The notes under the pieces were generated by a model. That model saw nothing but the letters and a program-made list of their open reading frames with translations, was not told where the DNA came from and did not search any database. From the IMG/VR virus record IMGVR_UViG_3300034104_002314, positions 1 through 62,103 of that record: a stretch of 62,103 nucleotides of DNA, one strand, 5' to 3'. The stretch comes from a virus. Lineage: Duplodnaviria; Caudoviricetes. Positions 5,034 to 45,400 of this stretch are shown here, in pieces. Within the stretch, counting starts at the first letter, position 1. Each line of letters begins with the position of its first letter. Position numbers and translations under genes: made by a program.

Positions 5034-5045
5034 AAATATAAAATA

Positions 5046-24800: not shown

Positions 24801-25254
24801 AAGACCAGATGCAAAATGGTTAGAACAATTTAAATCAACAGGTAAAGATGAAGACAATAATCTACTTACTACTGATGATTACAATGCTATTCTACAAAAT
24901 GGTATATCAGTAATATCTAATAGAGGTAATTTTAATAATCCAGCAATGGGTTCAACATACAAAACTCCATTAGAAAACATAGTTGATTATAATGGTTTTT
25001 ATGAAGAATCTATACCTGGTGCAGGAACATTTAGAATTGATAAAGGTCAAGGTCCTGCTGGAAACTATAGAGTAAGCACCAAATTTGAAATATGGGATCC
25101 ATCAACATCAAAGTTTAATGAGAATATAGTTTATGATGATCTTTTACCAAAAGATAGAAATCTTGAATTATACAGAGCAAGTGAGTTGCAACTACTTCAA
25201 GAAGCAAGATTGCATAACAAGATGTTGTATAATGGTAACTATAATTTATACTAA
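21847..25254 (+). CDS. Large internal cargo/ejection protein
   Basis: 1135 aa; helical; no Cys seen; immediately precedes the three giant proteins. Confidence 0.65.
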   Translation: MATYLQNVTDYVPELQPFQPDLNFYSNVLQTKQSQYDSNWKALNKMYGQYFYADLTRDGNIKKKDELLKNMEFNLKRVSQLDLSLEQNVNQATQIFKPFYEDKNLMKDMAWTKTYNSQVGKAQALQGSADAERRKQFWDAGLKELQYKKEEFKNADDATAMSFGNVAYTPYVNSVELAQKIAKDAGLSIETVDFSPDGKWIITQKNGEKLREPLSKLFEARLGSDPSVQAVYRTQAYVNRKDYAYSNAAQFNGDQNAAEMKYLETSFNILKDQNAQRYRAVQDRSKSYDGKIKEIEKSIADKTASPGAEKLLNEYKQAKDINDKILERVEKQNTEFNETSSSTPSTSTGFINPYGDVNSLRWKVDAGMASMLMSKDLNEAAEIFAYKDAKTNIKENPYKVLEVKHAQSMQQIHARGSYSVRAASIKAKGATDAARIRNAGEMEAVKMGELAKKGLVTPKEVPVYDKNGQVKLDPNGKPLTEFVWAKTENEYQVKNVTNNTGEIDIFDYAKKQNEGVGGLFSAVNAQLSEWLKNGGKLGVITEDEAVGMLNDERVLGNKRKDTKGRYIDPTAGMFNKDFTVVDWMQDSGAMTEYKGVKVADPELRRFKAPVVTAENIGKLTKEDIYNIGKAQQHSDRSGLGFVKQDVTKVPFNEANYYKTTIDRIESFIADNYDVPYIESTATQIKEVLYPAKVAAAQNYNFEDWKYKVKEAAIKEDPGAEMLFDENNELLPIEALRQVASKAVYDEYQQGTQSKQGFFESVANTIGFYVKGSELNPETAKYWKSWGELFTGADQAPSTWLGEKYAKYSPYLRGPGSLARPGEDNKDYDYVVLKDKLEETHAKVFANMTSSKWFVDNDLGTIPGVAALGAGGTGITSTISAIQVLPQAAGTKGFTAWHSFAEDFRRIGNFDGTQNAILFGDAAGISGIEKTAIADSDVAVAQTGKGRALIEAMISALNDPNTDYKPFTLEASGMALSDPTKAAMIIRPDAKWLEQFKSTGKDEDNNLLTTDDYNAILQNGISVISNRGNFNNPAMGSTYKTPLENIVDYNGFYEESIPGAGTFRIDKGQGPAGNYRVSTKFEIWDPSTSKFNENIVYDDLLPKDRNLELYRASELQLLQEARLHNKMLYNGNYNLY

Positions 25255-28200: not shown

Positions 28201-31200
28201 CTGGAGACTTTGCAGATTTAGTTGAAAGACACTTTGAGTGGAAAAAACAACTATGGGAAAATAGAAAAGATTACTATAGGGATCAAGTTCAAGCTAGTAT
28301 GAATGCATTTGCAGATAATGCTTTGCTGAATCAGTTAGCTGATGAGAACTTTTATGTAAGCTTGGATGACTTTGCAAGATGGCAAGAGACTGGTCAAGTG
28401 CCTGATGAATTTTTTAATGATCAGAAAAATATAGTTGTAAGAGAAGGTACATCAGAGTATGATAGATTTTCTGCAATATTTGATGCAGCATACCTAGCAA
28501 GACAAGCTGGAGTACTAGATGAGAATCTTAACTATGATGAGGAACTTAAGAAAGAACTTGAAGAACTTGATGCACAAAAGAATGAAGAATTAAATGCTCT
28601 TCCTAAAACAGAAGTGATGACTGAACTTGATCCTGTTGAAGCTAGTAAGGGTTCTAAAGTTACCGCTAAAGATATAGAAGATCAAGTACAAAACACTGAG
28701 TATATAGATATCACATTCAAAACAAAAGAAGGTAAAGATGAGATCACTCTATATAGAACAGAAGATGGTGATTTTATTAATGAGGTTACAGGTGATGTTG
28801 TTGATCTTGTTGCAATGAAGTTAGATATTCTTGAGAATAAAAGATATAGAAATGATCTCCAACCAGATCCAACACAAGCTCAAGAAATTGAGAATGTTTA
28901 CAAGAATAAAAAGGCTGATATTATAAACAAGTATGCTGAGAAAAAGGCTGTACAAGCTGAGGAAGAAGAAACATCTGTTGAAAAACCTGAGGCTAAAAAA
29001 GCTGAACCAGTTACTTATAGTGCTACTGATGATTTTAGTAGTTTAGATAAAACTTTACAAGATCAATTACAAGAAGCTTTTGTTAAAAATGTTCCAGAGG
29101 CAGAAGAGTTTGATGATGAACAGTTCTTTAATGAGCTCAGAGCATTTACTAGAACTAGTGGTATTGCTAGAAGAATAATTGATGAATACAATAAAAAATC
29201 TAAACTTACTGCAGCTACTGAAGTAACAGGAGTTCCAGAAAAACTAGTAATAAAGTTATCTGGTAAAGAAGTAGATCTTACTGATCAACCGGAGTCTGTA
29301 ATTAAAAAGAACAGACAGTTACTTATGATGCAGATTAATAATATGCAGAATAAGGATAAGAGAACACCTGATGAAAACTTGATGCTAGCAGAAGCTAAGG
29401 CTGATAAAGCTAAGATAGATAGATATCTTAAATCAAGAACTACTCAAGAGATATCAGAAAAAATGCAAGAGACAATCAATAGATTACAACTTGTATTTGA
29501 TGCTCAGTCTAAGTTGGAAAAAATCAATGAGGCATATTATGTAGATAATCAGTTAATGAAAAGAGTTACCCGGGCAATTGAAGAGCTTGGTGTAACTGAG
29601 TATTCTTATTCTGATGAAACCAAAGTATTAGCTTCTGTAAATCAGACACTTGTAAAAGGTAAATCTGTAGAAGATTTTATTGCAGATCTAAGAACTAAAA
29701 AACCTAGTGGCTTTAGTGAGTATACTTACAATGAACTAGCTAAAGAACTTAAAGCATTTCTTAATGAAACTTCTGTTAGTAATGAAGCTAGTATAAAAGC
29801 TAAGAAAGCTGATATAGAAAAAGAAAGAGAAGAAAAAGTAAATGAGTTTCTTAGAAATATAAAAAATAATAGAGGAGAAAAAAGATTTGATGATCCTAAT
29901 CTTCAAGATGAGTTAGAAATTAAACAACATTCTAGAAATGTAGCTAAAGCTTTAGCTGACGGACAAACTATTACTTTTGAGTTTCTTAAAGCTAATTTAG
30001 GAGCAAAATTTACTACAAATAGTTCTAATGTAGTAACAGTTACTACAAATAGAGGTACGGGTAATATTGAGCTATCAGAAGAAGGTACCGTTAGATATAT
30101 TGCTATAGATAAAAATAACAATATTACTTATGACTTTGAGGATAGAGGAAAAGAAATAAATCTTAAACAAGCTAGAGCAATAAGTAAAGCAGAAGCAGAT
30201 TATCAAAAAGAATTAAAAAATATCAATGCTAAATATGATGCAGAACTAGCTGCTTTAGAACAACCTGTTGAAGCTAAAATTAATATTCCAAAAGATCAGG
30301 AATTACTTCAACTTAATCTAGATGCACTAAGAGAAGATCTTAAAGTAGAACAAGGTGAGTTTGGTAATCCTGAAAGAGCTCAACAAATAAAAGATCAAAT
30401 TGCTAAGCTTGAAAAACAAATTGTAAAACCATCAGGAAAATCTGCAGAGGATATTAGAAATGAAGTTATGGCAATTGTCAAGGAGAAAACATATGAAGCT
30501 TCTAGGATTGCTGGTAACTATGTGGATAACCAAATCAAAAACATATTTGACCCTAAGATAGGTAAAGCTGTGTTTGATGAGAATAGTATTACTAGGATTG
30601 CGTTTAATAACTTATTTGGTCCAGAAGGTATTGTTACAGATCTTAAAGCCAAGTTTGACAGAAATGAGATTGCAGTATACACTAAAGATATCAGAGTCTT
30701 TGACAAGGATGCAGGTATAGCTGGTGAGATAGATATCATCATAGTAGATAGAGATGGTAATGTGAAGATAGTTGATGTTAAAACAGGTGAGGCTAGTAAA
30801 TGGAATAACTTCCAAGACAAGAAAAAGTTTGGATACCAGAAACAAAAAGACTACATCCTACAGCAAACATCCTATGCTAACTTGTTATTCAACATGACAG
30901 GTCTTAATGCTTCCATAGGTATATTCCCAATTGAAATAACTAAAGATGATGAGACAGGTAAAGTATTAACTGCACAGTCTCCAAAAGTTTCTTCAGGTTT
31001 ACTTCCAGGTGCATATGAAATTCCATTAGATAAGTCTTTATACCAAGCAGAAATTGACTCTATTATACCTAGAAAAGGTGTGGCCGTTGATTCTAAAGAA
31101 TCTGCAGAGGCTGCTAATCTTGAAAGTATTCCAAGACAAGATGGTGATGATGCTCCTTCACCAGCAGTTAAAGCTCAAGAGACTCTTGAAGAAAAACCTA

Positions 31201-31796
31201 TTGGTGTTGGAAAAGGTAATGCTGATCTGGCTGCACAACTTGCAATGAAGATCAGACTTGCTAAATCTAAAGATTCTATTAAAGCAGCACAAGCTAGCTT
31301 AAATAAAGCTGTTAACAAACTTAGTGCGGCAGAAGTTGTTGAATTATCTAATCAGTTGCAGGAAAAACTTGATTCATTATCTGAAGGAATTTTACAATTA
31401 AATAAAGAAAATCTTAAAGAAAATGACAAACTTATTGTAAAAAACCCTATATTTATAAAAGGGGCTAAGTGGGCTATTTTTGGAAACACTCTAGTCATAA
31501 CTGATGTAAGTGACACAGGAGTTACTGTAAGAAAAGCTAGAGGTAAAAAGACAGAAACCCTTACATTTGCACAAGTAAATGCATTAACAACTTTAAAAGA
31601 TAGTCTTGAAGACATGAAACCTACAACAGAAAAACCTTTAACTAAAAAAGAACAAGATATAGTTGCTAAGTCTAAAGCAAACATTGATGACTTTGTAAAA
31701 GACTTTAATAGATTAGATGCTATTGAAGCTGAGGCAGACTCAATGAGTATTGAAGACTTAGAAGAAAGATTATTTAACCAAAATATTTGTGAGTAA
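25260..31796 (+). CDS. Giant virion protein with C-proximal PD-(D/E)xK nuclease domain
   Basis: 2178 aa; Gly/Ala-rich hydrophobic helices in the N-terminal part; GIAGEIDIIIVD...KIVDVKTG...Q.SY RecB-like motif at about 30714-30900. Confidence 0.8.
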   Translation: MAEQDIPFNPLDPLGPEYGRGDLPTLDTQGISPFEGDRIEQPKINFPKDESPKYFPILPSTGGTIPQKQVIKKTIGQPPGPAGPPRGTSSRDILMSLSARSKANMSSNQSKGTYGGTYNYNAGASGNAYYNRYHAYGQEKFDRIGFSPLQDNEAVFNGQTSKWDDFSRMMTHSFMPLFGNAFVSGPKSMVKMLQGDFTSVDAEGAKLYEEAAAIGQSTKGGLFGFFNNTAMSSAYTAGIISEVILEELAAAAFTGITGGVGGGALVATTAKNASRIPGIFKTLRGFDKAVDGTKAIRATMDTLNDINNTRSYWNKFKSAVNTPLGKFINPLDNTVDAIESIVRNEDNLTGLARTLYGVNKTAGGLYRDVRGLNMALSEARLEGGFVQNEVYDKLYSDFYQDNQRRPTNEEQRLLYKQAKEAGVEALGWNAAIIHASNKIMFPNILGPRGGINSFIKAKTRDILDLKAGKIIFENAGKKAAKEAVKGMKGSFRYVENSLMNSIKGIAKDPVKAIPKVLGYAKANFSEGIQENLQEVISETTKNYYVDSFKDPSLANYNYARSLFNTSLRGQFSAKGFETFASGFVMGMFGAPLNHVVPLLSYGKARLFNNEKYQEYVSAKQKVGTQMVNHLNELGADPSEFFNSKITNLAVQNKAGHIIKNGNTKEVNDAKSESFINQLTTAFETNTLDFFKDHLSSFKQYTPEEFEEALGLEKGTGAEYQARIDDILKHADNMQTTYKNLNQKYPDQINLDDYKKGSDDYNRAAIYKSALAEGKRNAVFFKHTYDDTMSRMYDISNTLLAEKPLKNMSASEMQAIFEPSRMKSEMEMMRYEIETLRQSGKAEDSAKADKIEGKIGAMENFLKALNYRSKHYAADPSKIKSDFIDTLTDEQKEQINEEELDALLDRELEAQNMVRRSDESDLKVDNLFERAYKDYLKAVAGVTDDTYFDEAADSAFEKILDYYNLEKESRDMAKYVNLLNNPGDFADLVERHFEWKKQLWENRKDYYRDQVQASMNAFADNALLNQLADENFYVSLDDFARWQETGQVPDEFFNDQKNIVVREGTSEYDRFSAIFDAAYLARQAGVLDENLNYDEELKKELEELDAQKNEELNALPKTEVMTELDPVEASKGSKVTAKDIEDQVQNTEYIDITFKTKEGKDEITLYRTEDGDFINEVTGDVVDLVAMKLDILENKRYRNDLQPDPTQAQEIENVYKNKKADIINKYAEKKAVQAEEEETSVEKPEAKKAEPVTYSATDDFSSLDKTLQDQLQEAFVKNVPEAEEFDDEQFFNELRAFTRTSGIARRIIDEYNKKSKLTAATEVTGVPEKLVIKLSGKEVDLTDQPESVIKKNRQLLMMQINNMQNKDKRTPDENLMLAEAKADKAKIDRYLKSRTTQEISEKMQETINRLQLVFDAQSKLEKINEAYYVDNQLMKRVTRAIEELGVTEYSYSDETKVLASVNQTLVKGKSVEDFIADLRTKKPSGFSEYTYNELAKELKAFLNETSVSNEASIKAKKADIEKEREEKVNEFLRNIKNNRGEKRFDDPNLQDELEIKQHSRNVAKALADGQTITFEFLKANLGAKFTTNSSNVVTVTTNRGTGNIELSEEGTVRYIAIDKNNNITYDFEDRGKEINLKQARAISKAEADYQKELKNINAKYDAELAALEQPVEAKINIPKDQELLQLNLDALREDLKVEQGEFGNPERAQQIKDQIAKLEKQIVKPSGKSAEDIRNEVMAIVKEKTYEASRIAGNYVDNQIKNIFDPKIGKAVFDENSITRIAFNNLFGPEGIVTDLKAKFDRNEIAVYTKDIRVFDKDAGIAGEIDIIIVDRDGNVKIVDVKTGEASKWNNFQDKKKFGYQKQKDYILQQTSYANLLFNMTGLNASIGIFPIEITKDDETGKVLTAQSPKVSSGLLPGAYEIPLDKSLYQAEIDSIIPRKGVAVDSKESAEAANLESIPRQDGDDAPSPAVKAQETLEEKPIGVGKGNADLAAQLAMKIRLAKSKDSIKAAQASLNKAVNKLSAAEVVELSNQLQEKLDSLSEGILQLNKENLKENDKLIVKNPIFIKGAKWAIFGNTLVITDVSDTGVTVRKARGKKTETLTFAQVNALTTLKDSLEDMKPTTEKPLTKKEQDIVAKSKANIDDFVKDFNRLDAIEAEADSMSIEDLEERLFNQNICE

Positions 31797-34700
31797 TGGC
31801 TATTACATGTACACTGGGAAACCAGCAGTTGGAGGTATTATATGCTGTAGTTTATAAAAACATGCAAAATGTTCCAGAGGGAACACCATTTGATGTTAGA
31901 ACTTTAATGTCTAGACTATATGAGCAACTTAAAGAAAGACAGGGTGAAGGTCCTGCTGTTGAGTATGTTCAAGCAATCCCATATCTTGCTGGTATATTAA
32001 GTTATAGACTAGATGATGTTGAGATAAGTCCAGAGACTGATCTTAGAAATCTAGCTAGAACCTTGATGAACCCAGAGACAGGCTATGCAGAAACTCTTAA
32101 ACTTGTTGGTGGAGGTCTAACACCAGAACAACTTAGTATTATAGCTGAGGCAGAAGAAGAGGTTAGTGAAGATGAAGAACCTGCACCGGTTAAACCAAGA
32201 CCAGAGTTTAAAGATACTAATGACTATAAAGCAGATGATGCTTTTACTTCTACATTTGAAGAGTATCTTACAGTAAACCCTAATGAAAAACCTGAAAGCT
32301 TTGCAGAACAAATAGATCCAGATAAATCATATATCTATGCTACTCTTAGAAAGATAAATGATGAAATGAAAAGAGATCTAGATAGAGATCTTAATACTGA
32401 TTTTGTTTTCCAGGGTAAAACTTTGAAACTAAAAACAATATTATTATCTAAGCTTTCAGTAAATGATAGAACTGAATATAGTAACAACTTTGTTAAAAGA
32501 GCTAATAGTATTCAAAATCCGGATCCTAAAGTAAAAAAACCAAATGAGATTGTTGCTTTAGTAGTTACTGATGAGAAAGGAAACTATATTTACTTTGATA
32601 ATAATGGTAATGTATCCACTAAAGAAAAAGGTGGTAGAGTAGTTTACCAAATGATGCGTGATGCTAGAAAAGAAGGTAACAAATATAGAGTTACTGATAT
32701 CTATGGTAGAACAGATCAAATTCAAACTCCTGAACAGATTGCTGAGAACATGATGAACTTCATGGGTTATAAAGACAAAGCTGCATTTGAAGAGGGTGAA
32801 AAAATTTCATTTACAGACTTTGTAAAAGATCTTGCTGAAGAACAACAAAAACAATTCAAAGCTCTATATGAGTTAAGAAACTCTATTGTAGAAGGAGGTA
32901 AATCAAAGTTACTTAGATTAAGTAGTATCTCAAGTGGTGTTAGAATCAAAACAGATCCTAACCAAAAAGTAACCTTGCAAAACCTTGCTGGACAATTTCC
33001 TATGAATAGTAATGAGATATTAAGCAGTATGCTTGTACTCAATACTCCGTCAAAAGGATTTGAAGCTGGTGCTGCAGTAGTTAACATTGAAGGTGAAACT
33101 TATAAGGTAGATAGATCAGATATAACAGAAGACTTGGCAAGAAAGATAGCTAAAGCTCTTACGTCTAGCTTATCTGATGAAGATAAAAATAAATACTATT
33201 CTCAGTTCTTTATAGACAAAGGTTTCTTTGGTACTAAAAGACACTATGCGGCATTTAAAAAAGGGCAGTTCTTGTTTACATATGACACATATACTGAACA
33301 AGAAATGAAATTAGATAAAGCCAAAGCTCAGTCTAATCAAAGAAATGCAATTGATCTAAAATCACCTACAGCTGAAGAAGATATCTATAAAATACTTATG
33401 TCAGGTAAATCTAGTACTAGTGGTACAAGGTTTCCGGCCAAGATCAGATATGATGATACAGCACTAGATCAAGAAGTATATCTTGACTTTCAAGATGGCA
33501 AACTGGTGCCTGCTAACTACTTAGATTTTTTAACTACTCTTCCTGCTCAGATATTTATAAATGGTGCTAAGGTTGTACCTTTTTATAACTCATATATGAG
33601 ATTTAGAGTTCCAACAGAACTTAGTGAAAAGATTGATACTGCTGCTGAAAAAGTTAAAGAGAATGCTGAAAAGAAATCCGCTATAAGAACTAACAAAGAT
33701 GCTCTTGCTGATGCTATCAAAGCTTCATCTACAAAAAGCATAATTACCACAACTATGGGTATGACTGCTTCAGGTATTACACCTGACGGAAAACCTTATG
33801 CTAATTTTAAAATTGCTAATCCTATCAAAGAAGGTCAAGCTGTTAAGATATATCTAGAGCAGAAACAGGAGTCTGAGAACTTTAAATTTCCAAAGCATGG
33901 GCAGAAAGTTCTTCTTGAAGTTGCTACTATAACTGTAGATAATAAAGTTATACCAGATGTAGTACAAGTATTTGATTATACAGGAGATAAGAAGGGTGTA
34001 TTACTTGGGCAAGCAGCTGAGACTGACTATGCAAATGATGAGGCTGAAAGAGATTACACTGCAGAACCAGGAGATATAGTTGAAGAAAAAGTAGAACCAA
34101 AAACTTCAGTTGAGGAACAAATTAATAAAGTAATAAACAACCCTAATGTTTCTCAACCTTCAGATAAAGGTAGCGGTATTAGTGGTTTATTTAGTCTTGA
34201 TAGAAAGACTGCTTTACCACAAGGTGTTACAGCTAAAAAAATAGATGATGATAAAAAATGGTGGAGTAAATCCCCACTAAATAAATTTATTGAGTTAGAT
34301 CACTTAGCAAACATAGTAAACTCTGATGCCTATGCTAGATTTATAGTTGACGGTAATACTCTTGCTAATGGAGGCAAACTAGCTAGGATAGAATTATACA
34401 AGTCAGGTTCATTTGCTGATGTATATCATGAAGCATGGCATGGATTCTCTCAGTTATATTTAACCAGAGATGAAAAGATTAAGCTCTATAATGAAGTTAT
34501 TGCTAATGATCCTAAGTTAAAGAATGCTTCCTTCTTTGAGATAGAAGAGAAACTTGCAGAAGACTTTAGAACATATGCACTAAACCAAAAAACTAAGAAA
34601 GGGTCTCCAGTTAGAAATACACTATTTAGAAAAATCTGGAACTTCCTTAAAGAACTATTTGGCATACCTGGAGTACAAGATATGTCTCCTAACCTAGTAG

Positions 34701-37700
34701 AACAGAATAATACAGTTACTGAACTGTTTAACAAGCTCTACATGGCTAGTGAGAACCCAAGTTTATTAAATAGCTATACTCCACTTGTAGATAATGTAAT
34801 GTTTGATATACTTAATAGAGGTATCAATAATGTCAATCAACCTAAGGAGGATTCATTAAACAAACAAGATGCAGTAGTAGTTTCTGAGTCTATAGATTCT
34901 GTCATATCAGAAGTAGTTGATGAGGTAAATAATGACCCATCCAATAACTATGGTAAATCTGCTACTCTAAAGCTCCTAACTAAATCTCAGAATAAAGTCC
35001 AGTTATATCAGCTTGTAAGACAAAGATTTCAAGAAAGACTTAAAAACATACAAGATAGTTTAACATATAAACCAGAAAAACCTTTTAATAGTTTCCAAGA
35101 TGTTGATGCATTAGAAAAAAATGCTGCAGCTATTATTAGAGACAAAGATGGTAATCATCAATATGTGTTCTTAAGATCTCAGATTGATGATTATAATAAC
35201 TTAGAGTTAGATACAAAAGCGGGAACCAGACAGAAGGGTGATTTATATAAAGAAACCATAGAGATAATCTCAGATTTCTATAAGCACAATGCTGTTAATA
35301 ATGCTAACAATGAACCAGCTGATATATTAGTAGTTACTGACATTGAAGAAGCTAGGAACCAATATGATAACTATGTCAAAGGTAAAGATGAAACTATTAC
35401 TGAGTTTGTTGAAAATGAAGATGTAGTAAATACATTACCAGAAGTAACTTATGAGCAAAGTCAGGAACTAGATAATGTAAGGATTCTGCAGACTGCTTTA
35501 AACAACTGGGGTGATCCAACTAGCGGTGTTGTAAAATATCATATTGAGAACAGCAGATTTGATCTTATCAGACAAAAGATTACTGATATAGATTCTGAAA
35601 AAGATGCAACTGGTGATGCAACAGCTAGTGAAAAGTTTGAGAAAAAAGCCGGTGAAATGTCTCTATTAGAGATGGCTGACCAAGAGATAGTTTATATCCT
35701 AAAGAGTTTGTTTAAACAAACTAAGAAAGGTACTAAGTTTGTAACTACTACTAATAAATTAGGCTTCAAAGACCTAGGTAACTTTAGCCAAAACTGGAAG
35801 AATACCGTAAGAACTTTGAATGGTATTACTGATCCAAAGCAAATGTATACTGCAATTGTTGAGGCATCTAAAATATATCCTGAGTTTGAACAGTTATTAA
35901 ATAAGATACCTGACCCATCATTACCTACTACACCTGCAGAGAATGATATTATTACTTCTATGTGGCAAACATTCCAGAAACCTGCAGCTACATTGCTACA
36001 GTTAACCGGATTCAAACAAGATGATGGAAGTATCATAACTGAACTTACAAATGCTGCAGTAGATGTAGCAAATACTATTAGAGAATTTGGTAACAGATTT
36101 AAAGCTGATACTAGAGATGCATACATAGAAAGAATAGATAATCAATCTATGTTAAATGTAACAGCATTGATAAGAAACTTTTCAGATTCTAATGGTAATT
36201 TAGACCCAGATAAAGCTTTTAAGTTTTTAAATGCAATGGGCTTTTATCTTGATGACCTGAAGGTTATAAAGGATGAGCTTAATAGCATACAAGGTGTAAA
36301 AAAATATGGTGTTGATTATATATTCAATACAATAAAAGCTATAAGTTATAGTGAGAATGCTCAAACTGTAAGTAAGGCAGCTGCTGATGTTATCTCTGAG
36401 TTTAAGAAAGATCCTTTAGCTACATTGGTAAAAGGTATTCAGCCTCAAATTATTGGGTCAACATCTAGTTTTGTATATACTAAAGGTTCTAAACAGAAAA
36501 ACTTTGTTGAGAAGATAGCTGGATTACAAGTTAAGTATGGTGTTGATGCTTCTAACTTTACAGCACTTAACCCAGAAAGAAACTTAGTAAACAAACATAT
36601 AGAGCACAGCAGTGCTAGTATGATTATTAATGGTTTTAATCAAGCTACCAAGCTTGAAGACTTCTGGAAAAAAGATGAGTTAAAATATATGAGCTCATTC
36701 AATCCTGCAGTAAATCCTTTTGTTGAAGACTTACAAATTACTAAATCCTTATTTGATTTAAGTAAGCCTGAGAAAGCAAGAAGAACAAGCAGATCTCTTG
36801 ACTTAATACTTGACATGGGTACTCAAATTGCTGAGTTCACTGTTGAAGATGAAGATGGTAATAAAATTACTAAGTCTATTGGTACTAATACTACTGCATT
36901 AGATCAGTATAGTAAATTCCTACAAGAGTTTCATACGTTCTTTAAAGGAGGTTTGCAAGAGTTCCTAAGAGCTGGATCTAAGTCTACTTCTATGGCTTTG
37001 AGAATAGAGGGTGGTATTATGTCTGAGATTGGTGACAGAAAAGATCCAAGATACTATGTTGATTTAGATAAGTTTCTACCAGAAGGTAATGGTGAATCAT
37101 TTGCATTTGACAATATTATTCTACCTTATATATCTGCAGAGACTGAAAGAATCAACAGATTTAAGAACTCTTCTATAGCCAAAAACTATACTGGGTATAA
37201 CAGGGAGTTTAAGAATGGTAAAATGTATGGAGAGTCATATGTATATTTTGATTCCATACTTGATAAAGATTTACAAGATGATATTTTAGCTGTGGTTAAT
37301 AAACCTGGTATGAAGTTAAAGGACTATGTTAAAAATGATCCTAAACTTTATGACAGAATAAAACAAAGAGTAAATAAATACTTCAATAATGGTGCGGAAG
37401 AAGTTTATCAATACTTACAGAAAGCTAAGTATATAGATAAAACTGTCATAGATAGATTAAATATACCTACTGTATCTACAGCGGACAGAGAAAGAATACT
37501 TGCTAAAGCTTATATGTATAATGCATGGATTCATAACTTTGAAGTTTCTCAAGTTATCTTTGGAGATATTGCACAATTCAATCATAAGAAAGAGGAGTTT
37601 CATAAAAGAACTTCAGGAGCTATTTCCGGTGGTCCAAAAATTAGAACTGACAAAGCATTTAGAGATTTCATAAATGATGTCAACAGTAAAGAAACTGGAT

Positions 37701-40700
37701 TTACATGGGATAGAAATGCTTATGCTAAAACTCTAGGTAGTCCTGACTATATTAAGTTTACTTACAATGGTACTGTTAATACTGCTATTATGCAAGATGC
37801 AGATAGAGATAGTATTTATAAACCAATGATTGAAAAAGCTATCAGAGAGGATTATGAAAAAAGATATGCTGGTAAACCTAATGCTGCAGAGGAAGTAGAG
37901 AAAAGGGTTAAGATTGAAGCTGATAAGTACTTGAAAATGACTGAGGCTGATGGTCAAGGTTATATTACAATTGATGCATACCGTACACTTAAGAAGGGTA
38001 TGAATAAGTGGAGTGATCAGCAAGAAGCCCTTTATCAAAAAGTAGTATCTGGTCAAGAAATCACAGCAGCAGATGTTGTAAATTTTTTCCCAGTATTCAA
38101 GTTACAGAACTATGGTAACTTGGCAGGTACAGTGTTGCCAGTAACAGCAATGCATAAGTTTGCTCTTATGCCTTTAATACCATCTGTAATTAAAGGATCT
38201 GACTTAGAGACTCTACATCATGAAATGTTGAGAAACAATATTCAGTATGCAACATTTGCCAGTGGATCTAAAGTTGGTGGTGTTACTGCTGACGGGAAAC
38301 CAGATAACATTTTTGCTGACAAAGAGCAAAAGATTATAAAGGATAAGTTAACTCTTACTCCTAATACTGTATATGTAGAGTATCTTAAAGAATCAGCTAG
38401 TGTTCCAGATTATTCTAAAGGTAAAGTTGTATTCTCTACTCAGTTGAGAAAGCTATTACTTAATGGTTTGTACCAAGATGGTAAGATTATAAATACTGAG
38501 TATGAACCTGTTGCTAACAGATATAAGACCGCAGTAGATAACTATACTAATCTATTAAAGCTTGAGCTCCTTGATGAGATCAACTTTAAGAAAGTGGGTG
38601 ATACTTATAAAGGTAACATTGAAAACTTACTTAAATTAATCCAAAGAGAGCTAAGAAGAAAAGACATGCCTGAGCATTTAGTTGAGGCTATTGGTCTTAA
38701 TGAAGATGGTACCTTAAAGAATGACTTGTCAATACATCTTGATGCCCAGACAATTGAGAAGACCATAATGTCAATTGTAGAGAAAAGATTTGTTAAGCAA
38801 AAACTTTATGGTGAAGCACTAGTTCAAGTATCAAGCACACTTACTAGAGGTATGTGGTCTAGTGGTATTAAGTTTACTGAAGGTACTGAAGCTGAGAGAG
38901 AAAAATTACTAGGTAGTAATACTCTTCCTTTCTATGAGCCCGGAAAAGATGGTAATACAAATGCCATGAAAGTTTCCATTGGTCTTCAAGGTGAGTTCAA
39001 TAACTTACTTAATAAAGAATGGAAGGGTGAGAAGATAGGTACTATCCAAAGACTTAATGAACTTATCAAAGATGAAGAGTGGCTTAATACTGATGATAAC
39101 AGAAAGTCAATTACATTAAGTGCTGTTAGGATTCCAGTTCAGGGTCTTAACTCTATGGAGTTTATGGAAGTTTATCACTTCATGGATCCTAGTGCTGATA
39201 ACATGATCTTTGTTCCATCTGAACTTGTTGCTAAGTCTGGTGGTGACTTTGACGTTGATAAGTTAACTACATTCTTTCCACACATAGCTTCTGATGGTAC
39301 GTATGTTACTAGTAAAGAAAGCACTGGAGACTTTATCAATAAGATAAATACAGAAAGAGAAAAGACCAATAAAAGTTTTGCTGGTCAGATTAAAGCACAG
39401 AAGAAAGCTGCAGAGAATGAGTTACTTGAGTCAATTAAAGGGGTACTTGAGTTACCAGATAACTACGTAAACCTTGTGAGACCAAATGATACATATATCT
39501 TACAGGATATTTCTGAAGAACTTGAGAACATAGTAAGTGACTATAATAGATTTGTAGGTGGTGATAAAGATGCAAAACAAATTACTCCATCAATTACACT
39601 TCATCCACTATACAATGTACATAAGCATGGTGTAAACATGGAAGGTAAAGATGTACTTGGTATTGCAGCTAATGAAAATGCTATTAGTCCAGTCTTTGAT
39701 TCTGTTGGTGCGGCAATGCCTGCAAGTTATTATCAAACTCAATTTAGTAAAAAACTAGGAAGGGATATTGAACTTAAATCTGCTCCTAAGTTAGCAATGA
39801 GATTGTTTTTACCACATAATAAAACAGATGATGGTAGAATATCACTTTCAAAAATCTATGATGTTGAAGGGGTGAACAGTGTGGCTGAATTATTTTCACA
39901 AGCTATTAATGGTACTGTGGATGTTGAGAAAAATCCGTGGATATTCTTTATTCAAGGTAACATGGAAGTTGCTACAACACTGTTCTATTTATTTAAAGCA
40001 GGGGTTCCAGTAAGAGATGCTATCTTCTTTGTTTCCAATCCTTTAGTTAGAGATTATGTTAACAATCAGAAAAGGTTAAAAAGTGCTTATGGTGAGTTTA
40101 CTGGAGATGCTCCAAAAAGTCCAAACTTTGTTAAGTATAACTCAGCTGTTTTAACACTAAGTAATATCATACCTGATATGATTGAGAATGGTCTAAAAGA
40201 TTATAATGGTGAAATGTTTATTACCACTCAGTCAAGATATGAAAAACCTCAAGTACAAAGAATAACAACTGAAGTATTTAAAGAGGAACTAAGAAAAGGT
40301 AATATACCTGTAGATGATATAATGACTCTTGAAAAAGTTAAGGGCAGTCCACTCACAAAAATACTTTATACCAAACCTCAAATTACAGGAAAGACTTATT
40401 TTAAGACTGTAACTAACTATGTAAACAAACCAAATGTTCTTAAAAATGGAACATTTAGTTTAGCTGACATGGAGAAACTGGTAAAAGAACCTGGTCAAGA
40501 AAGCTCTAACTTAGCTGTGTCCATGTTCCTACATTTTCTGGAAATAGAAAAACAACTTAAGGGTCTTGGTGCTCTCAAGAGAAGTTCAAAACCGGATACT
40601 CAGACATTTAAAAGCCCACAAGAAATTTTATATAGAGATGTAAATATTGATCTTCTTACTGAAAATTCCAAAGTGGATAGTAATTTAATGACCTTATTAC

Positions 40701-42445
40701 AGACTGATTCAGTTTTAAGCTCATTGTTTGATAAGAGTATTATCATGTCTATGCTTAACCCATTATTTAAGTTAAGGGATAATACTAAACTCAATGACTT
40801 TATACTTTCTAAAATAAGACTCAATGCTGATATTATTAAAAATAATTTTGGTCAAGGTAAAGAAGGAGCTTCTAGATTCATAGATGAGTATAAAAATGGA
40901 ATGATTAATTTTATCTATCAGAATTACATGTCTAATATTATAGACTCTAATGGTAAGATAACAAATACCCCAGATGACTATAGAGGATATAAAGTTACTA
41001 CTAATAACTCCCAGGAGAAAGATGTAGTTATAAATAAAGATTCAGAAGGAAAAATAACAAGTATATCTGTTAACTACAACCTAATTGAATCTGACTATGA
41101 TAATAATCTATATCTTGGTAAGAATAATGCAGTAGATAACTCTTACTTTAAGAGAGGGTTAAAAACATTTAGACAAGCTGATGCCTTATTCCCGGATAAA
41201 ACAAGCTTTTTAAAATATGTTTTAGAAAGAGAATATTTAAGAGAAACTTATAAAGATATTATTCCAGCTCAATCTCTAGAAACATATCTTGCAGATAAAG
41301 CTCTTATGCATACATTTAATAGAGCTGTAATTATGCGGGATAATGAACATTCATACACTGATAAAGTGATGAACATTGTTAAAAACTTTCCTTCATTAAA
41401 GACACAGTTTCCTATACTAGAACAAATATCAAGAGTACCAAGTAAGACTGGAGATAATATATTAACTCTTAATGACCGTAGAATACTTTCTGCAGCTGAG
41501 TCTGAAATATATGTTCAGAATATAAAACAACTTGCTGATCCTAATATAAGAAAAGTAGAAGACCCTTTCACTAACAAAGCAATTAGTGATGTCTTTGGTT
41601 TATTCCCACAGATAATGGTATACCAGCATGGTGTAGGTAAATCTAAATATGGATTTAACATGGCTCTTCCTGTAGATAAGTACAACACTATAATGAAGTA
41701 TGCATCTAAAGTGTTCTCAGATAACTACATGAATGCTAAAACATTTGAAATTATCTTTGATAGACTTACAGCAGTTAAGACTCCATTTAAGTCTTATATG
41801 ATTGATGCTACTAAGTTTGAAGAATTTGCTCCGGCTAAACCTGTTGAAGTTACTGAAGAAGAACTACTAGAATCTGATCCAGAAGAAGAACAAGCACCCG
41901 TTGTTAAACCTGAAATTAAAACAGAAGAAATTGAGGAAAGTATAGTACCAGAAATAGTTACACTTGACAGTTTGTCTAAAAACTCTACATTTCAAAACAT
42001 GACAATTGAATTTGTTAATGAGATTGTGACTGATAAAGCTATACCAGTTGCAATGCGTAATATAAATAAAGGTGAAAAGATACTGATTGTATCTGAACTA
42101 ATGAAACAGAAATACAATGAGAAAGCCTGGTTATCACCTGCTCAACAAAGGGATGGATCTTTTGCAACACCATTAAGAGAAAATTCATTTAATAGTTTTA
42201 ATGAATTTCTAACCTTTGCACTTTTACATGAAGCTGCTCATAATTATATTTTAAAATTAGAGACAGAAACTATTGGAGAGTATGAGGATAGAATTAATCA
42301 AGAAGCATTATCTAAACTTTCATTATTAGTAACTCAACCAAAAGTTGAGGAAGATTTAACTACCTTTACGGAGACAAAAGATACTGAGGAGGATGACTCT
42401 GATGATATAGATAATAATTGTAGCAATCCATTTTTAGGAGAATAA
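31796..42445 (+). CDS. Virion-packaged single-chain two-barrel RNA polymerase with zincin-like domains
   Basis: 3549 aa; ADGQGYIT, RIPVQG and catalytic GGDFDVDK (39245-39259; DFDID in phi14:2 gp66); HEAWH at 34427 and HEAAH at 42227. Confidence 0.9.
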   Translation: MAITCTLGNQQLEVLYAVVYKNMQNVPEGTPFDVRTLMSRLYEQLKERQGEGPAVEYVQAIPYLAGILSYRLDDVEISPETDLRNLARTLMNPETGYAETLKLVGGGLTPEQLSIIAEAEEEVSEDEEPAPVKPRPEFKDTNDYKADDAFTSTFEEYLTVNPNEKPESFAEQIDPDKSYIYATLRKINDEMKRDLDRDLNTDFVFQGKTLKLKTILLSKLSVNDRTEYSNNFVKRANSIQNPDPKVKKPNEIVALVVTDEKGNYIYFDNNGNVSTKEKGGRVVYQMMRDARKEGNKYRVTDIYGRTDQIQTPEQIAENMMNFMGYKDKAAFEEGEKISFTDFVKDLAEEQQKQFKALYELRNSIVEGGKSKLLRLSSISSGVRIKTDPNQKVTLQNLAGQFPMNSNEILSSMLVLNTPSKGFEAGAAVVNIEGETYKVDRSDITEDLARKIAKALTSSLSDEDKNKYYSQFFIDKGFFGTKRHYAAFKKGQFLFTYDTYTEQEMKLDKAKAQSNQRNAIDLKSPTAEEDIYKILMSGKSSTSGTRFPAKIRYDDTALDQEVYLDFQDGKLVPANYLDFLTTLPAQIFINGAKVVPFYNSYMRFRVPTELSEKIDTAAEKVKENAEKKSAIRTNKDALADAIKASSTKSIITTTMGMTASGITPDGKPYANFKIANPIKEGQAVKIYLEQKQESENFKFPKHGQKVLLEVATITVDNKVIPDVVQVFDYTGDKKGVLLGQAAETDYANDEAERDYTAEPGDIVEEKVEPKTSVEEQINKVINNPNVSQPSDKGSGISGLFSLDRKTALPQGVTAKKIDDDKKWWSKSPLNKFIELDHLANIVNSDAYARFIVDGNTLANGGKLARIELYKSGSFADVYHEAWHGFSQLYLTRDEKIKLYNEVIANDPKLKNASFFEIEEKLAEDFRTYALNQKTKKGSPVRNTLFRKIWNFLKELFGIPGVQDMSPNLVEQNNTVTELFNKLYMASENPSLLNSYTPLVDNVMFDILNRGINNVNQPKEDSLNKQDAVVVSESIDSVISEVVDEVNNDPSNNYGKSATLKLLTKSQNKVQLYQLVRQRFQERLKNIQDSLTYKPEKPFNSFQDVDALEKNAAAIIRDKDGNHQYVFLRSQIDDYNNLELDTKAGTRQKGDLYKETIEIISDFYKHNAVNNANNEPADILVVTDIEEARNQYDNYVKGKDETITEFVENEDVVNTLPEVTYEQSQELDNVRILQTALNNWGDPTSGVVKYHIENSRFDLIRQKITDIDSEKDATGDATASEKFEKKAGEMSLLEMADQEIVYILKSLFKQTKKGTKFVTTTNKLGFKDLGNFSQNWKNTVRTLNGITDPKQMYTAIVEASKIYPEFEQLLNKIPDPSLPTTPAENDIITSMWQTFQKPAATLLQLTGFKQDDGSIITELTNAAVDVANTIREFGNRFKADTRDAYIERIDNQSMLNVTALIRNFSDSNGNLDPDKAFKFLNAMGFYLDDLKVIKDELNSIQGVKKYGVDYIFNTIKAISYSENAQTVSKAAADVISEFKKDPLATLVKGIQPQIIGSTSSFVYTKGSKQKNFVEKIAGLQVKYGVDASNFTALNPERNLVNKHIEHSSASMIINGFNQATKLEDFWKKDELKYMSSFNPAVNPFVEDLQITKSLFDLSKPEKARRTSRSLDLILDMGTQIAEFTVEDEDGNKITKSIGTNTTALDQYSKFLQEFHTFFKGGLQEFLRAGSKSTSMALRIEGGIMSEIGDRKDPRYYVDLDKFLPEGNGESFAFDNIILPYISAETERINRFKNSSIAKNYTGYNREFKNGKMYGESYVYFDSILDKDLQDDILAVVNKPGMKLKDYVKNDPKLYDRIKQRVNKYFNNGAEEVYQYLQKAKYIDKTVIDRLNIPTVSTADRERILAKAYMYNAWIHNFEVSQVIFGDIAQFNHKKEEFHKRTSGAISGGPKIRTDKAFRDFINDVNSKETGFTWDRNAYAKTLGSPDYIKFTYNGTVNTAIMQDADRDSIYKPMIEKAIREDYEKRYAGKPNAAEEVEKRVKIEADKYLKMTEADGQGYITIDAYRTLKKGMNKWSDQQEALYQKVVSGQEITAADVVNFFPVFKLQNYGNLAGTVLPVTAMHKFALMPLIPSVIKGSDLETLHHEMLRNNIQYATFASGSKVGGVTADGKPDNIFADKEQKIIKDKLTLTPNTVYVEYLKESASVPDYSKGKVVFSTQLRKLLLNGLYQDGKIINTEYEPVANRYKTAVDNYTNLLKLELLDEINFKKVGDTYKGNIENLLKLIQRELRRKDMPEHLVEAIGLNEDGTLKNDLSIHLDAQTIEKTIMSIVEKRFVKQKLYGEALVQVSSTLTRGMWSSGIKFTEGTEAEREKLLGSNTLPFYEPGKDGNTNAMKVSIGLQGEFNNLLNKEWKGEKIGTIQRLNELIKDEEWLNTDDNRKSITLSAVRIPVQGLNSMEFMEVYHFMDPSADNMIFVPSELVAKSGGDFDVDKLTTFFPHIASDGTYVTSKESTGDFINKINTEREKTNKSFAGQIKAQKKAAENELLESIKGVLELPDNYVNLVRPNDTYILQDISEELENIVSDYNRFVGGDKDAKQITPSITLHPLYNVHKHGVNMEGKDVLGIAANENAISPVFDSVGAAMPASYYQTQFSKKLGRDIELKSAPKLAMRLFLPHNKTDDGRISLSKIYDVEGVNSVAELFSQAINGTVDVEKNPWIFFIQGNMEVATTLFYLFKAGVPVRDAIFFVSNPLVRDYVNNQKRLKSAYGEFTGDAPKSPNFVKYNSAVLTLSNIIPDMIENGLKDYNGEMFITTQSRYEKPQVQRITTEVFKEELRKGNIPVDDIMTLEKVKGSPLTKILYTKPQITGKTYFKTVTNYVNKPNVLKNGTFSLADMEKLVKEPGQESSNLAVSMFLHFLEIEKQLKGLGALKRSSKPDTQTFKSPQEILYRDVNIDLLTENSKVDSNLMTLLQTDSVLSSLFDKSIIMSMLNPLFKLRDNTKLNDFILSKIRLNADIIKNNFGQGKEGASRFIDEYKNGMINFIYQNYMSNIIDSNGKITNTPDDYRGYKVTTNNSQEKDVVINKDSEGKITSISVNYNLIESDYDNNLYLGKNNAVDNSYFKRGLKTFRQADALFPDKTSFLKYVLEREYLRETYKDIIPAQSLETYLADKALMHTFNRAVIMRDNEHSYTDKVMNIVKNFPSLKTQFPILEQISRVPSKTGDNILTLNDRRILSAAESEIYVQNIKQLADPNIRKVEDPFTNKAISDVFGLFPQIMVYQHGVGKSKYGFNMALPVDKYNTIMKYASKVFSDNYMNAKTFEIIFDRLTAVKTPFKSYMIDATKFEEFAPAKPVEVTEEELLESDPEEEQAPVVKPEIKTEEIEESIVPEIVTLDSLSKNSTFQNMTIEFVNEIVTDKAIPVAMRNINKGEKILIVSELMKQKYNEKAWLSPAQQRDGSFATPLRENSFNSFNEFLTFALLHEAAHNYILKLETETIGEYEDRINQEALSKLSLLVTQPKVEEDLTTFTETKDTEEDDSDDIDNNCSNPFLGE

Positions 42446-42455
42446 TTTATATGAT

Positions 42456-45400
42456 ATGGCAAGATCTGCATGTACAAACAAGAATTTAAGATTTAAGTCC
42501 TCTGAAGCTTCAACCAAAGCTAACATGAGATCATTAGGAATTGTAGATAAATATCTCAATATCCAGGACTATAAAAAGTTCCTGGATTATAACTCTAAGT
42601 GGTCAAAGTATGCTAATGAAAAATATGGTATTGAAGGTCGGTTATTTACTTCAGAGTTTGGTGGAACCAGAGCTTTACCTAACAAAGAAATGTTTCATCA
42701 GATAGATGCTTTCAAAGGTATTTTTTATAAAGAGAATGCATATCTTAGACCAGATTATTTACCAGAAAGATCTAAACCAGATATTGTTCCATTTGAATTT
42801 AATAAAGAAGATGTAAGTCAGGAGAGAGCAGAAAGAGTTCTCAACTCTCTTGGTGAAAAGTTAATGCTAACTCTAGGAGTTCCTTACCAATATATCACAG
42901 AACAAGAGGCTATTGATACTCTTGCCGGAACAAGTACACCATATAAAAATCAACCAGGGTTTTACTATGGTAATATGGTATATTTAGTTAAAGGTAAAGC
43001 AAACATGAACACAATGATTCATGAGTTTGGTCATCCGTTAATTAAAGGTATTGCAATCCAAAACAATAAGTTATTTAATAATCTATATAATAAAGCCAAG
43101 CTTACAGCTACCGGCCAAAGTATTATTGAGCAAGTGAAGGCTCTATATCCTAATTTACAGTTTGAGTCTGATAGATTTATGGAAGAGGTTCTTGTTAGGT
43201 CTCTTGAGAGAGATGCTGAGAATAAAATTAATAAGCTTCAGCAACAGGATCCAGAGTTCAATAACTTTATCAGCATGCTTGTATATGCTATAAAAGAACT
43301 CTTCAGAAAAATATCCAAAGTTATTTCTGTAAAAGAACTTAAGTCAGATACAACTATAGACCAGCTTACAGACATGTTATTATTTGAGGACATTAAGATA
43401 GCTAATCTTAAGTTTGATGAGACAGACTATGCTGAAATGAAGAATGAGTTTGATGATTTAGTTGATGCACTTCAGAATGTAAGCACTAAAAACTTGCAGA
43501 ATGCTATCAATGAAACATATGCTGAGGCTAAGTATCAAATTCAAGTATTAAAAAGCTCTGGGAAACTAAAGAAAGAACTTGTTGGTGAAGGTGGTCTTGC
43601 TATACTCAGTAATCTTAAAGGTTTCCTAGCTAGATATCAGAATGTTGATGTAAAAGATATTCCTGTTGAAGATGTGGCAGAAGCATTACAAGCTCAACAA
43701 GAAGAATTTAGAGTAAGAGCCACTGCACTTGTTGAAAGTTTGTCCCAGGTAAAGGTGTTTACCACTAAGATAGAGAATATCTTAAATGAAATGGAAGATA
43801 ACAACAGCTACCTTACTGATGATGGTATATCAAAAGTCTCATACTTTAATGACTTCTTAGCTAGACAGGATAGATTTCTAAAAGCAATAAAGAAAACAGT
43901 AGGTTTATCTAGAACCAATGAGTTTGTTAAAGAAGTATCTGATATATCTGATATAGTTTCTGTTGCCAGAGATAAAGTTAAAGAACTTAGAAAAGAATAT
44001 GCTCTTCAGTTTATGCAAGATAACACTGCATTTATGCAAGATGAACTTGAACAAAGACTGAAAGAAAGAATAAACACTTATCTTAAATTAGATAAAATAC
44101 CACAAGCACAGATAGATGAACTCATAGAAAAGATTATATCTAATCCTGATGGTAAGACACTGACTGTAAAAGAACTAGGTCCTGGAATTAATCCGGCCAG
44201 AGGTGCTGAACTTGTTAGAGAAGTAGGTGAATATTATCAAAAAAGACTTACTAGAGATTCATTAAATAGTTGGATTGAAGGTACTGCAGAAGACATTGGC
44301 TTTCTTGAGTCCATGTTAAATCCTTATATGTCTATTGATGATCCTCTTGGTAGCTTTGTTAGATACATGAAGACCAAGTTATCTGATGCCGAGCAAGTTA
44401 GTCTAAGAGAAGAAACAGATATGCTTGAAACTCTTATACCATTAATGCAGGCAGCTGGTTTAAACCCAACTAATATTGAAAGATCTGGTGAGGCTTTGCT
44501 TTCTATTGATAAAGTAGGAAGCACAAATGAAAAAGGAGAGTTTGAAGAGTTTGAGGTCTACAAAATTAAAAGCAAGTTTGGTAATGGTTGGAGAGCTGAC
44601 AGAGACAGATTTGAATATGAATTTCAACAAGCACAAGAAAAAGGTGACAAAGTTGCAATGAAAGATGTTCTTACCAGAAAATGGGAGTGGGAAAAGAAAT
44701 ATATGCATCAGGAAAAAGTTCCTGAGTACTATGCTGTACAGGAAATCTGGAAGCAAGAAAATAAGATAAGAAATCCATTTACAAAAGAAATGGAAACTAT
44801 ACCAGCTACTATAGCTACTGAGGCTTATCTTGAAAGACAAAAAGCTCTTGGTGAAATGATTGTATATAAAAGCCGTGACTTTACAACCATGGATGATATA
44901 TACACCTTTACTGAGGCTGATGAAGCACAGAAAAGATATAATGAGTTGTTTCAAATATATGACAGCAAAGGTCAACCTAAGACTGGTGAAGAGCTTCAGA
45001 AAGTTTTAGTTAGGTTAGAATATAGAAGACAGTCTAGTAAGTTCTATGAGTACATTCCTAATGAAGAGAAAGTACAAACTGACTTGGATGCTTTTGTTCA
45101 GGATCTAGCGGCCAGAAAAATTACAATGGAATCCAATCCTGAAGAGTTTCAGAAGGCTTTAGAAAAGTTTGAAGAAAGAAACTTTAGAATTGCATACACT
45201 CCAGATTATTATGAGAGTAGAGATCAGATAATGACTGAGATAAAAACTCTTACAAGTAAAAGTAAAAAGTCTGCTATTGCTACTGAACTAGCTGATCTTT
45301 ACCGTCAAAGATTTGCATTATCTAATTTGGTTACTGATAGAAATGGTCAGACAAATGCTTTGGAATATAAGCCTGAGCAGTTTAAACTAATGAAAGATAT

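Follow-up and report, generated by a model that had tools for sequence, protein, structure and literature searches.

The stretch of DNA analysed here is a 62,103-base virus fragment (hereafter the window; IMG/VR record IMGVR_UViG_3300034104_002314, which is 52% complete), in which a crass-like structural block precedes a block of replication genes encoded on the opposite strand, and the subject of this report is a trio of giant genes, A, B and C, whose products are almost devoid of cysteine (Table 1). A count by script finds four cysteines in the 7670 residues of A, B and C together, all of them at the termini that face one another within the trio. The outer ends, namely the N-terminus of A and the C-terminus of C, hold none, and acidic stretches precede the C-terminal cysteines of both A and B. 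These features had been proposed previously from the letters of this DNA (the sequence-only reading below), and the three open reading frames (ORFs), every cysteine position, the cysteine-free outer ends and the acidic stretches were all recovered; furthermore, the recount of A, B and C revealed no overlooked internal cysteine, and the finding of any had been named in advance in that reading as evidence against it.

Table 1. Coordinates in the window of the trio, its cysteine codons, the modelled interface segments and further cysteine-free ORFs (aa, amino acids; vRNAP, virion RNA polymerase).
Feature	Position	Strand	Remarks
Gene A	25260-31796	+	2178 aa; sole Cys is residue 2177; C-terminus ...NQNICE; putative first chain link
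Gene B	31796-42445	+	3549 aa; Cys only at 5 and 3542; putative middle chain link
Gene C	42456-48287	+	1943 aa; sole Cys is residue 6; putative last chain link
A Cys 2177 codon (TGT)	31788-31790	+	penultimate residue
B Cys 5 codon (TGT)	31808-31810	+	N-terminus MAITC...
B Cys 3542 codon (TGT)	42419-42421	+	eighth residue from the end, preceded by acidic run
C Cys 6 codon (TGT)	42471-42473	+	N-terminus MARSAC...
A tail, residues 2126-2178, including Cys 2177	31635-31793	+	predicted to dock on B head
B head, residues 3-97, including Cys 5	31802-32086	+	predicted docking surface for A tail
DFDVD motif, B residues 2484-2488	39245-39259	+	vRNAP catalytic motif
Cys-free ORF	13845-14396	+	183 aa; PHROG match is one family of unknown function
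Cys-free ORF	14443-19056	+	1537 aa; no PHROG match
Cys-free ORF directly upstream of A	21847-25254	+	1135 aa

Since the other 20 ORFs of the window hold 1.5% cysteine, ~115 cysteines would be expected in 7670 residues. Four or fewer would arise with a Poisson probability of ~1e-43; with the counts fixed at 1, 2 and 1, the chance placement of every one of them inside the four facing end segments of 8 residues has a probability of ~1.5e-10. Chance is thus excluded as the cause of both the depletion and the placement.

A tblastn search with residues 1900-2900 of B matched 74 Crassvirales records, among them phi14:2 g066, annotated as 'Catalytic RNA polymerase subunit', and crAss001 gp50, and local jackhmmer searches recovered the same two proteins at 6e-200 and 4e-161, respectively. 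D2484, F2485, D2486 and D2488 of the DFDVD motif are invariant in a 10-sequence alignment (A1), and a catalytic role for a DFDxD-type motif in the crass-like RNA polymerase (RNAP) is described in the phi14:2 preprint (bioRxiv 10.1101/2020.03.07.982082; this and the other papers cited below are drawn upon from their accessible parts). B is identified by homology as a virion RNA polymerase, a homologue of phi14:2 gp66 and crAss001 gp50, and its Crassvirales homologues together with the invariant motif agree with the RNAP label given to it in the sequence-only reading. Likewise, A is assigned by homology to crAss001 gp47 (local jackhmmer, E 1.5e-80) as an RNAP-associated virion cargo protein, and C matched crAss001 gp49 at 1.9e-140 and phi14:2 g065 at 1.8e-103. 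Local jackhmmer detected no match between A and phi14:2 g067 at E<=1e-5, and the relation between these two is therefore one of position only. Sequence searches of Pfam, PHROG and PDB returned no match for A or B. In C, a LysM domain (residues 1628-1670) and a hydrophobic stretch (residues 1788-1804) are present in addition to an HEFGH motif at residue 189.

No phages are more abundant in the human gut than the crassviruses (PMC10172136), and the packing, counting and tail passage of their giant cargo proteins have been posed as an open question (PMC10172136; PMC13434306). In crAss001, gp47, gp49 and gp50 were found by mass spectrometry to be virion cargo and are thought to exit through the tail partly unfolded (PMC10172136), while the phi14:2 record notes gp67, gp66 and gp65 as virion proteins; by homology with these two phages, A, B and C of the window are presumably packaged in the virion as well. 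The crAss001 gp47/gp50/gp49 and phi14:2 gp67/gp66/gp65 sets represent the same homologous module with the same terminal-cysteine pattern, although the window B, at 3549 aa, is much longer than their polymerases (2180-2412 aa).

Facing cysteines among the relatives

Two scans of IMG/VR, in which relatives total 435, yielded 96 loci, four at ~90% identity and the rest at 24-45%, and these were analysed together with the window. Junctions were counted by a fixed rule walking along the module, a cysteine being scored as present when it lay within 12 residues of the facing terminus. The rule drops ORFs of fewer than 100 aa, nested ORFs, GIY-YIG-like ORFs and any ORF beyond the last one of at least 900 aa; it adds the C gene of locus L085, which lies beyond an endonuclease gene, and omits the named-phage loci L027-L029 and all loci numbered L100 or above. 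By this count, a cysteine is present on both sides at 182 of 186 junctions of consecutive module proteins, the four misses (in L080 and L090) being non-chain ORFs admitted by the chain rule. Dereplication at 70% identity over a 700-aa core of B reduced the loci to 60 clusters (13 at 40% identity), and the pair is then found at 111 of 115 junctions. Cysteines at the outer N-termini number 3 in 75 (two loci begin with B, and one has an over-long start), and at the outer C-termini 1 in 81, in a broken gene. Within the module proteins, 32 internal cysteines were counted in 681,656 residues. The remaining plus-strand ORFs of these loci contain 0.37% cysteine, and of 102 such ORFs 9 have a cysteine close to the N-terminus and 13 have one close to the C-terminus.

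The mean column identity of the 49-row alignments of A tails and B heads is 18-19%; cysteine is the only invariant column among the A tails, and C5, which is also invariant in A1, is the only column at 90% or above among the B heads. The column of B Cys 3542 is invariant in alignments A1 and A2, and that of C Cys 6 in alignment A3. At the 111 paired junctions, 0-9 residues lie beyond the C-terminal cysteine, which is the last residue at 38 of them and at most four residues from the end at 100, while the N-terminal cysteine occupies position 3-6, never position 2, with 2-5 residues ahead of it. As a separate observation, proline directly follows the cysteine at 27 of the 62 junctions after B, and the last chain protein often begins with a conserved Cys-Pro-Asn...Ser-x-Glu-Trp-Lys (for example in L053, L054, L068 and L093).

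An independent set was obtained by searching a library of 1.84 billion representative proteins with a B-head profile, the best 150 of the 472 matches being analysed. A cysteine is present in the first 12 residues of 146 of these 150 vRNAP-head representatives and in the last 12 residues of 81 of the 82 representatives that reach at least 2900 aa; the same 82 hold 24 internal cysteines in 294,879 residues.

The pattern was also followed in seventeen named records of the Steigviridae, Suoliviridae and Intestiviridae (phi14:2, crAss001, cr108_1, cr1_1, cr128_1, cr10_1, DAC15, cr118_1, cr11_1, cr50_1, cr85_1, cr125_1, cr126_1, cr273_1, LMMB, crAss002 and IAS virus), where our count finds both cysteines within 12 residues at 23 of 24 junctions. 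The pattern is cleanest in phi14:2, where g067 has one cysteine, its last residue, g066 has cysteines at 3 and -2 only, and g065 has one at 3 only. Phage crAss002 was counted as conforming only if the start is read at an internal MSC: this conserved MSC stands 32 codons downstream of the start annotated for gp33 (L120, 12762-13030), and the spacer of 170 nucleotides (nt) 3' of gp32 contains a terminator-like hairpin followed by a T-run. Gene A is encoded on the strand opposite B and C in crAss001, cr128_1, DAC15, cr85_1 and IAS virus, and there it retains its C-terminal cysteine. A three-protein fusion was sought in IAS virus, and a crAss001-like layout was found instead, with B broken by runs of N. 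A scan with gp66 of cr11_1 returned only loci of 94-97% identity.

Splits, fusions and shifted boundaries

A cysteine pair marks every break in the module and is lost when fusion heals the break. In the split loci (L019, L042, L055, L068, L069, L074, L076, L086, L087, L092, L094 and L095), extra intermediate proteins of 165-782 aa stand between B and the last protein, and each of these has exactly two cysteines, one per extreme, the first located at position 3-5 and the second among the final three residues; the link of L092, for example, is 506 aa long with a cysteine at both extremes. On a tree of 59 B cores (59 of the 60 cluster representatives, the one omitted having a core of fewer than 600 aa), the four-member architecture implies at least eight state changes. 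The link of L069 carries the head domain of C, and that of L055 has no detectable similarity to B or C of the sister locus L066. The eight A+B fusions (L085, L093, cr1_1, cr10_1, cr50_1, cr118_1, cr125_1 and cr108_1) have neither an N-terminal cysteine nor a cysteine at the old junction. In the L030-type loci, where the boundary has moved such that B comprises 4455 aa (~900 longer) and C, correspondingly shortened, 1138 aa, the pair flanks the displaced boundary and the interior of B is free of cysteine. Finally, lineages with a single junction (six named Suoliviridae and three named Intestiviridae) keep exactly the facing pair and no other terminal cysteine, and pairing of the A tail with the C head, or of the B head with the B tail, is therefore ruled out as a general rule.

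The GIY-YIG-like endonuclease ORFs found between module genes provide a control, as their cysteines are internal and not terminal. Such genes lie exactly between module genes in L069 (21937-22545), L080 (12361-13050), L085 (18261-18809) and L092 (10024-10641), and in L069, L085 and L092 homing-endonuclease genes of 524-647 nt separate the partner genes. Since the endonuclease of L069 adjoins a gene split, endonuclease invasion is suggested as one route of fission.

Three individual loci merit description. In L025 (20332-21144), gene C has a normal start (MAC...), its frame breaks after 128 codons and resumes ~180 nt later, which could reflect a frameshift, an assembly error or an intron. In cr108_1 (L029, 21806-22097), the fused A+B gene stops inside DFDxD and resumes ~290 nt later in a second coding sequence, which looks like an intron or another insertion in the catalytic motif. 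L043 (7386-26531) encodes a 6381-aa homologue of B with cysteines only at 5 and -1; its DFDxD is located at residue 5680, and there are therefore ~3000 extra residues ahead of the catalytic motif.

A proposed chain joined through its terminal cysteines

Docking of the last 90 aa of A on residues 1-170 of B was modelled with each piece supplied as a 49-row alignment. The score was 0.76 (0.77, 0.76 and 0.74 in the individual runs), compared to 0.00 for the best of three controls; the mark used is reached by 58 of 80 solved complexes and by 2 of 110 mismatched pairs, a calibration that is only rough here since custom alignments were employed. At least 80% of the contacts agree between runs, and the predicted local distance difference test (pLDDT) value of the partner is at least 68. 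The predicted interface extends from B residues 3-18 through 96-97 and over residues 38-90 of the 90-aa A piece, and includes both cysteine-bearing segments (B 3-18 and A-piece 82-90). A PDB sequence search revealed no similar complex. The model supports the binding of the A tail to the B head.

We propose that the terminal cysteines form a disulfide-joined, head-to-tail chain A-B-C, a reading towards which both the conservation of the facing pairs and the predicted docking point, and to which we assign a probability of about 0.58; that some junction-specific, cysteine-mediated link exists, whatever its chemistry, appears distinctly likely. According to this proposal, A, B and C would be packaged cargo proteins purged of cysteine, with exactly one kept at each terminus adjoining a neighbour in the chain. 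Every tail would dock on the head of the following protein, and a single intermolecular disulfide per junction would form between the lone thiols of the two partners, such that separately translated proteins would become a linear A-B-C pseudo-polyprotein of ~7670 residues. A disulfide represents the simplest chemistry because there is one thiol per side in otherwise cysteine-free proteins, and the length of the chain would be defined because its end members carry one cysteine each. The purge of internal cysteines would prevent mispairing, and, as only short stubs flank the cysteines, the cross-linked joint could thread the tail channel like a continuous chain. The bond may form in the particle, where it may fix a 1:1:1 stoichiometry or the order of ejection, while reduction in the host cytoplasm may release the parts or activate the polymerase. 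The crAss001 virion contains intersubunit disulfides in its tail and portal vertex (PMC10172136), which offer a precedent for a terminal disulfide link.

A linked pseudo-polyprotein of this kind, joined tail-to-head and in gene order, had been suggested in the sequence-only reading, which proposed to ask whether the terminal cysteines are conserved in facing pairs in related trios, whether they disappear where genes are fused and whether the terminal peptides model together. The idea gains support on each count: facing pairs are found at 182 of 186 junctions and form the sole near-invariant columns, they vanish in the eight A+B fusions and are gained at splits, and the A|B peptide pair docks in the model (0.76 against 0.00). 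The tail-to-head sense of the chain stands with the facing pairs; that it follows gene order does not, since A lies on the opposite strand in the crAss001-like phages with its cysteine kept.

Several points weigh against a disulfide chain. Among the representatives of the independent set, the head match of P0032 begins at residue 301, with a cysteine at 303, and that of P0107 begins at profile position 21 and looks N-terminally truncated; P0127 and P0129 (210 and 145 aa) are truly without an N-terminal cysteine, and P0066 is without a C-terminal one. A search for loci of P0127 and P0129 retrieved none for the former and, for the latter, only a relative at 67% identity, which starts normally (MAC) and whose partner bears a terminal cysteine. 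In cr273_1, the sole exception among the named phages, the upstream (C-terminal) cysteine lies 50 residues from the end. Nor is the purge absolute, since the named gut phages tolerate ~1.1 (1.08) internal cysteines per 1000 aa, ~20x the 0.047 of the IMG/VR relatives; the marine phi14:2 has no internal cysteine in its module, and the purge may have been less strict in certain lineages or habitats. The docking output, derived from custom alignments, consists of contacts and gives no Cys-Cys distance, and its scope is the A|B junction alone. As the cytoplasm in which particles assemble is reducing, and the habitats of gut crassviruses are anoxic, both the timing and the means of oxidation are problematic. 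No thioredoxin-fold match was found in the record, which at 52% completeness has no bearing either way; the same holds for the lack of a match to the Erv1/Alr families in the record, for which the search control was silent in every genome. Finally, recombinant phi14:2 gp66 is active alone (bioRxiv 10.1101/2020.03.07.982082), and the terminal link is therefore not needed for catalysis.

The thiols might also act without bonding to each other. Facing thiolates could share a metal ion (a two-coordinate soft metal, or zinc with ligands from elsewhere), or a terminal cysteine could cap the zinc of a neighbouring HExxH zincin-like site as a 'cysteine switch', tethering the proteins and keeping the protease latent. 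Such a bridge could form in a reducing cytoplasm, the module contains HExxH motifs at residues 878 and 3478 of B and 189 of C (H878 and E879 of B being nearly invariant in A1), and the gp65 family has been called zincin-like (bioRxiv 10.1101/2020.03.07.982082). However, in none of the classes of terminal cysteine is a His, Asp, Glu or second Cys conserved within 8 residues, and a simple S-S bond therefore fits better than a classic zinc site; the single cysteine per terminus likewise differs from the CxxC or Cys/His clusters that partners contribute to a zinc hook or zinc ribbon. A cysteine switch requires one cysteine per junction, yet both sides carry one almost throughout; the HEAAH of B at 3478 is not conserved in B tails, and two-member chains keep the pair regardless of nearby zincin domains, all of which makes a metal bridge improbable. 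Alternatively, the proteins may dock non-covalently, with the cysteines serving other thiol chemistry, such as redox sensing or transient mixed disulfides with host or periplasmic oxidoreductases on entry. This would suit the reducing compartment of assembly and the docking model, which requires no covalent bond, and the loss of cysteine from ejected proteins has indeed been explained as avoidance of periplasmic disulfide catalysts (PMC11445570). We nevertheless consider it unlikely, because cysteine is the sole invariant residue while the docking residues vary, and because the pairing stays strict and each new break independently gains a cysteine on both sides, as a Cys-Cys partnership predicts.

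Two further explanations would dispense with a protein-protein bridge of thiols. In bypass of the T4 gene 60 type, a short and fixed distance separates the take-off codon from the landing codon on the same mRNA, and the cysteine codons could be imagined as a comparable nucleic-acid or translational signal of ribosome bypass or coupling at the junction, given that both codons are usually TGT (98 of 111 pairs match, against ~90 expected from codon usage) and that in 38 of 111 junctions the stop codon directly follows that of the C-terminal cysteine. Unlike in T4, the partner gene A is on the opposite strand in five named phages with its cysteine kept, and the spacing of the cysteine codons varies between 8 and 70 nt (548-662 nt with endonuclease genes) in all three frame offsets. 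In addition, genes of 524-647 nt intervene between partners in L069, L085 and L092, a terminator-like hairpin occupies the crAss002 spacer, and the dominance of TGT reflects AT-rich codon usage. A bypass or coupling signal is rejected on account of the opposite-strand A, the variable spacing and the intervening genes, and a junction signal of any sort is scarcely credible. As to the cysteines being ligation handles, for trans-splicing or for peptide bond formation resembling native chemical ligation, nucleophiles are present at both ends of each break and some crassviruses encode the same modules fused, as observed here and also reported previously (bioRxiv 10.1101/2020.03.07.982082). The 0-9 residues after the C-terminal cysteine and the 2-5 before the N-terminal one leave no room for split-intein halves, however, the N-terminal cysteine is never at position 2 and is hence not an alpha-amino cysteine, and no intein family was matched in Pfam. 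Split inteins and trans-splicing are rejected, there being no intein half-domains at the termini, and ligation in general is extremely improbable.

Returning to the disulfide-joined chain, a wider possibility, which we advance tentatively, is that peptide bonds and terminal disulfides are interchangeable joints across Crassvirales. Each cut, whether by gene fission, endonuclease insertion or relocation to the other strand, would then yield ends that dock tail on head and carry one cysteine apiece, and the particle would keep a single redox-cleavable chain of 5,000-8,000 residues that may pass through the tail undivided, much as the single-chain N4 polymerase does, until the reducing host cytoplasm cuts it and so determines when the first RNA polymerase of the infection is released or activated. 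If such a chain exists, it would account for an equal stoichiometry of the cargo proteins and for the freedom with which the module is split, fused or moved in the genome, would connect the trio with the one-chain polymerase of N4, and would bring a redox step into phage infection. The cysteine rule furnishes a concrete hypothesis that may be tested in the cultured phages phi14:2, crAss001, DAC15 and crAss002, and the presence of one cysteine per end is an annotation aid that marks true gene starts and ends, as for crAss002 gp33.

The general depletion of cysteine from ejected phage proteins has already been published for the Schitoviridae (N4 gp50-52; DEV gp71-73), where its suppression in the ejection operon is explained by passage through the envelope and periplasm (PMC11445570). 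The crass module resembles that system in having a giant virion RNAP and co-ejected proteins that are almost free of cysteine. It differs in that the Schitoviridae vRNAP is a single chain with essentially no cysteine (0.00075%) and, in the accessible part of that report, no terminal cysteine mentioned (PMC11445570), whereas the crass module is split into two to five proteins with a cysteine pair flanking each break and its polymerase is of the DFDxD type according to the phi14:2 preprint (bioRxiv 10.1101/2020.03.07.982082). The window trio, accordingly, is not a single-chain vRNAP of ~3500 aa that is cysteine-free including its termini. The fused 'polyprotein' forms of crass-like phages present the same domains in the same order, a peptide bond replacing the junction and the cysteine pair being absent; the three proteins were reported to be fused in some phages, with proteolytic cleavage assumed (bioRxiv 10.1101/2020.03.07.982082). 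Furthermore, a 2026 paper on N4 raises the question of the correspondence between the three crass proteins and the N-terminal domain, core and C-terminal domain of the single-chain N4 enzyme (PMC13434306). The accessible text of the crAss001 atlas (PMC10172136) contains no occurrence of 'cysteine', and that of the phi14:2 preprint (bioRxiv 10.1101/2020.03.07.982082) none of 'cysteine' or 'disulfide'. Our literature searches, supplementary files and some subscription journals aside, found no description of a terminal-cysteine link in crass cargo.

Toxins of the diphtheria and clostridial neurotoxin type possess a single interchain disulfide, cross a channel as an unfolded chain and are freed by reduction in the cytosol. 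If the disulfide chain is correct, these two-chain toxins would be alike in operation though not homologous; their chains arise by nicking of one precursor, whereas the crass chains are separately encoded, number up to five and would be joined end to end. Linear chains linked by disulfides in terminal regions are also known from von Willebrand factor and the gel-forming mucins. Those are homopolymers with cysteine-rich terminal domains, made in the eukaryotic secretory pathway, in contrast to the defined heteromeric chain with a single cysteine per end proposed here.

Neighbouring genes of the window

Three cysteine-free ORFs lie upstream of the trio (183, 1537 and 1135 aa; Table 1), none of which featured in the sequence-only reading; the first two belong to the structural block. 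Homologues of the last of these, likewise placed directly upstream of A, have no cysteine in most loci, and it is likely, judging from sequence, to be another cargo protein; since it has no terminal cysteine, it would stand outside the cysteine chain. Between the cysteine-free ORFs, a 742-aa ORF (19062-21290, plus strand) contains six cysteines, all at residues 365-447 and with spacings that include C-x-C and C-x-x-C; it has no PHROG match, and the cluster may constitute a metal site.

The cysteine-free cargo block adjoins particle-module proteins that are extremely rich in cysteine (1458-5816). The 600-aa ORF at 1458-3260 (plus strand) contains 50 cysteines (8.3%), and in the ORFs at 3279-5033 and 5046-5816 the cysteines are clustered in the N-terminal parts; PHROG returned no match for any of these. 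The window also contains homing-endonuclease-like genes at 21350-21844 (plus strand), 57306-58076 (minus strand) and 58247-59476 (minus strand), of the HNH, GIY-YIG and HNH type, respectively, and the first of these is wedged among the structural and cargo genes.

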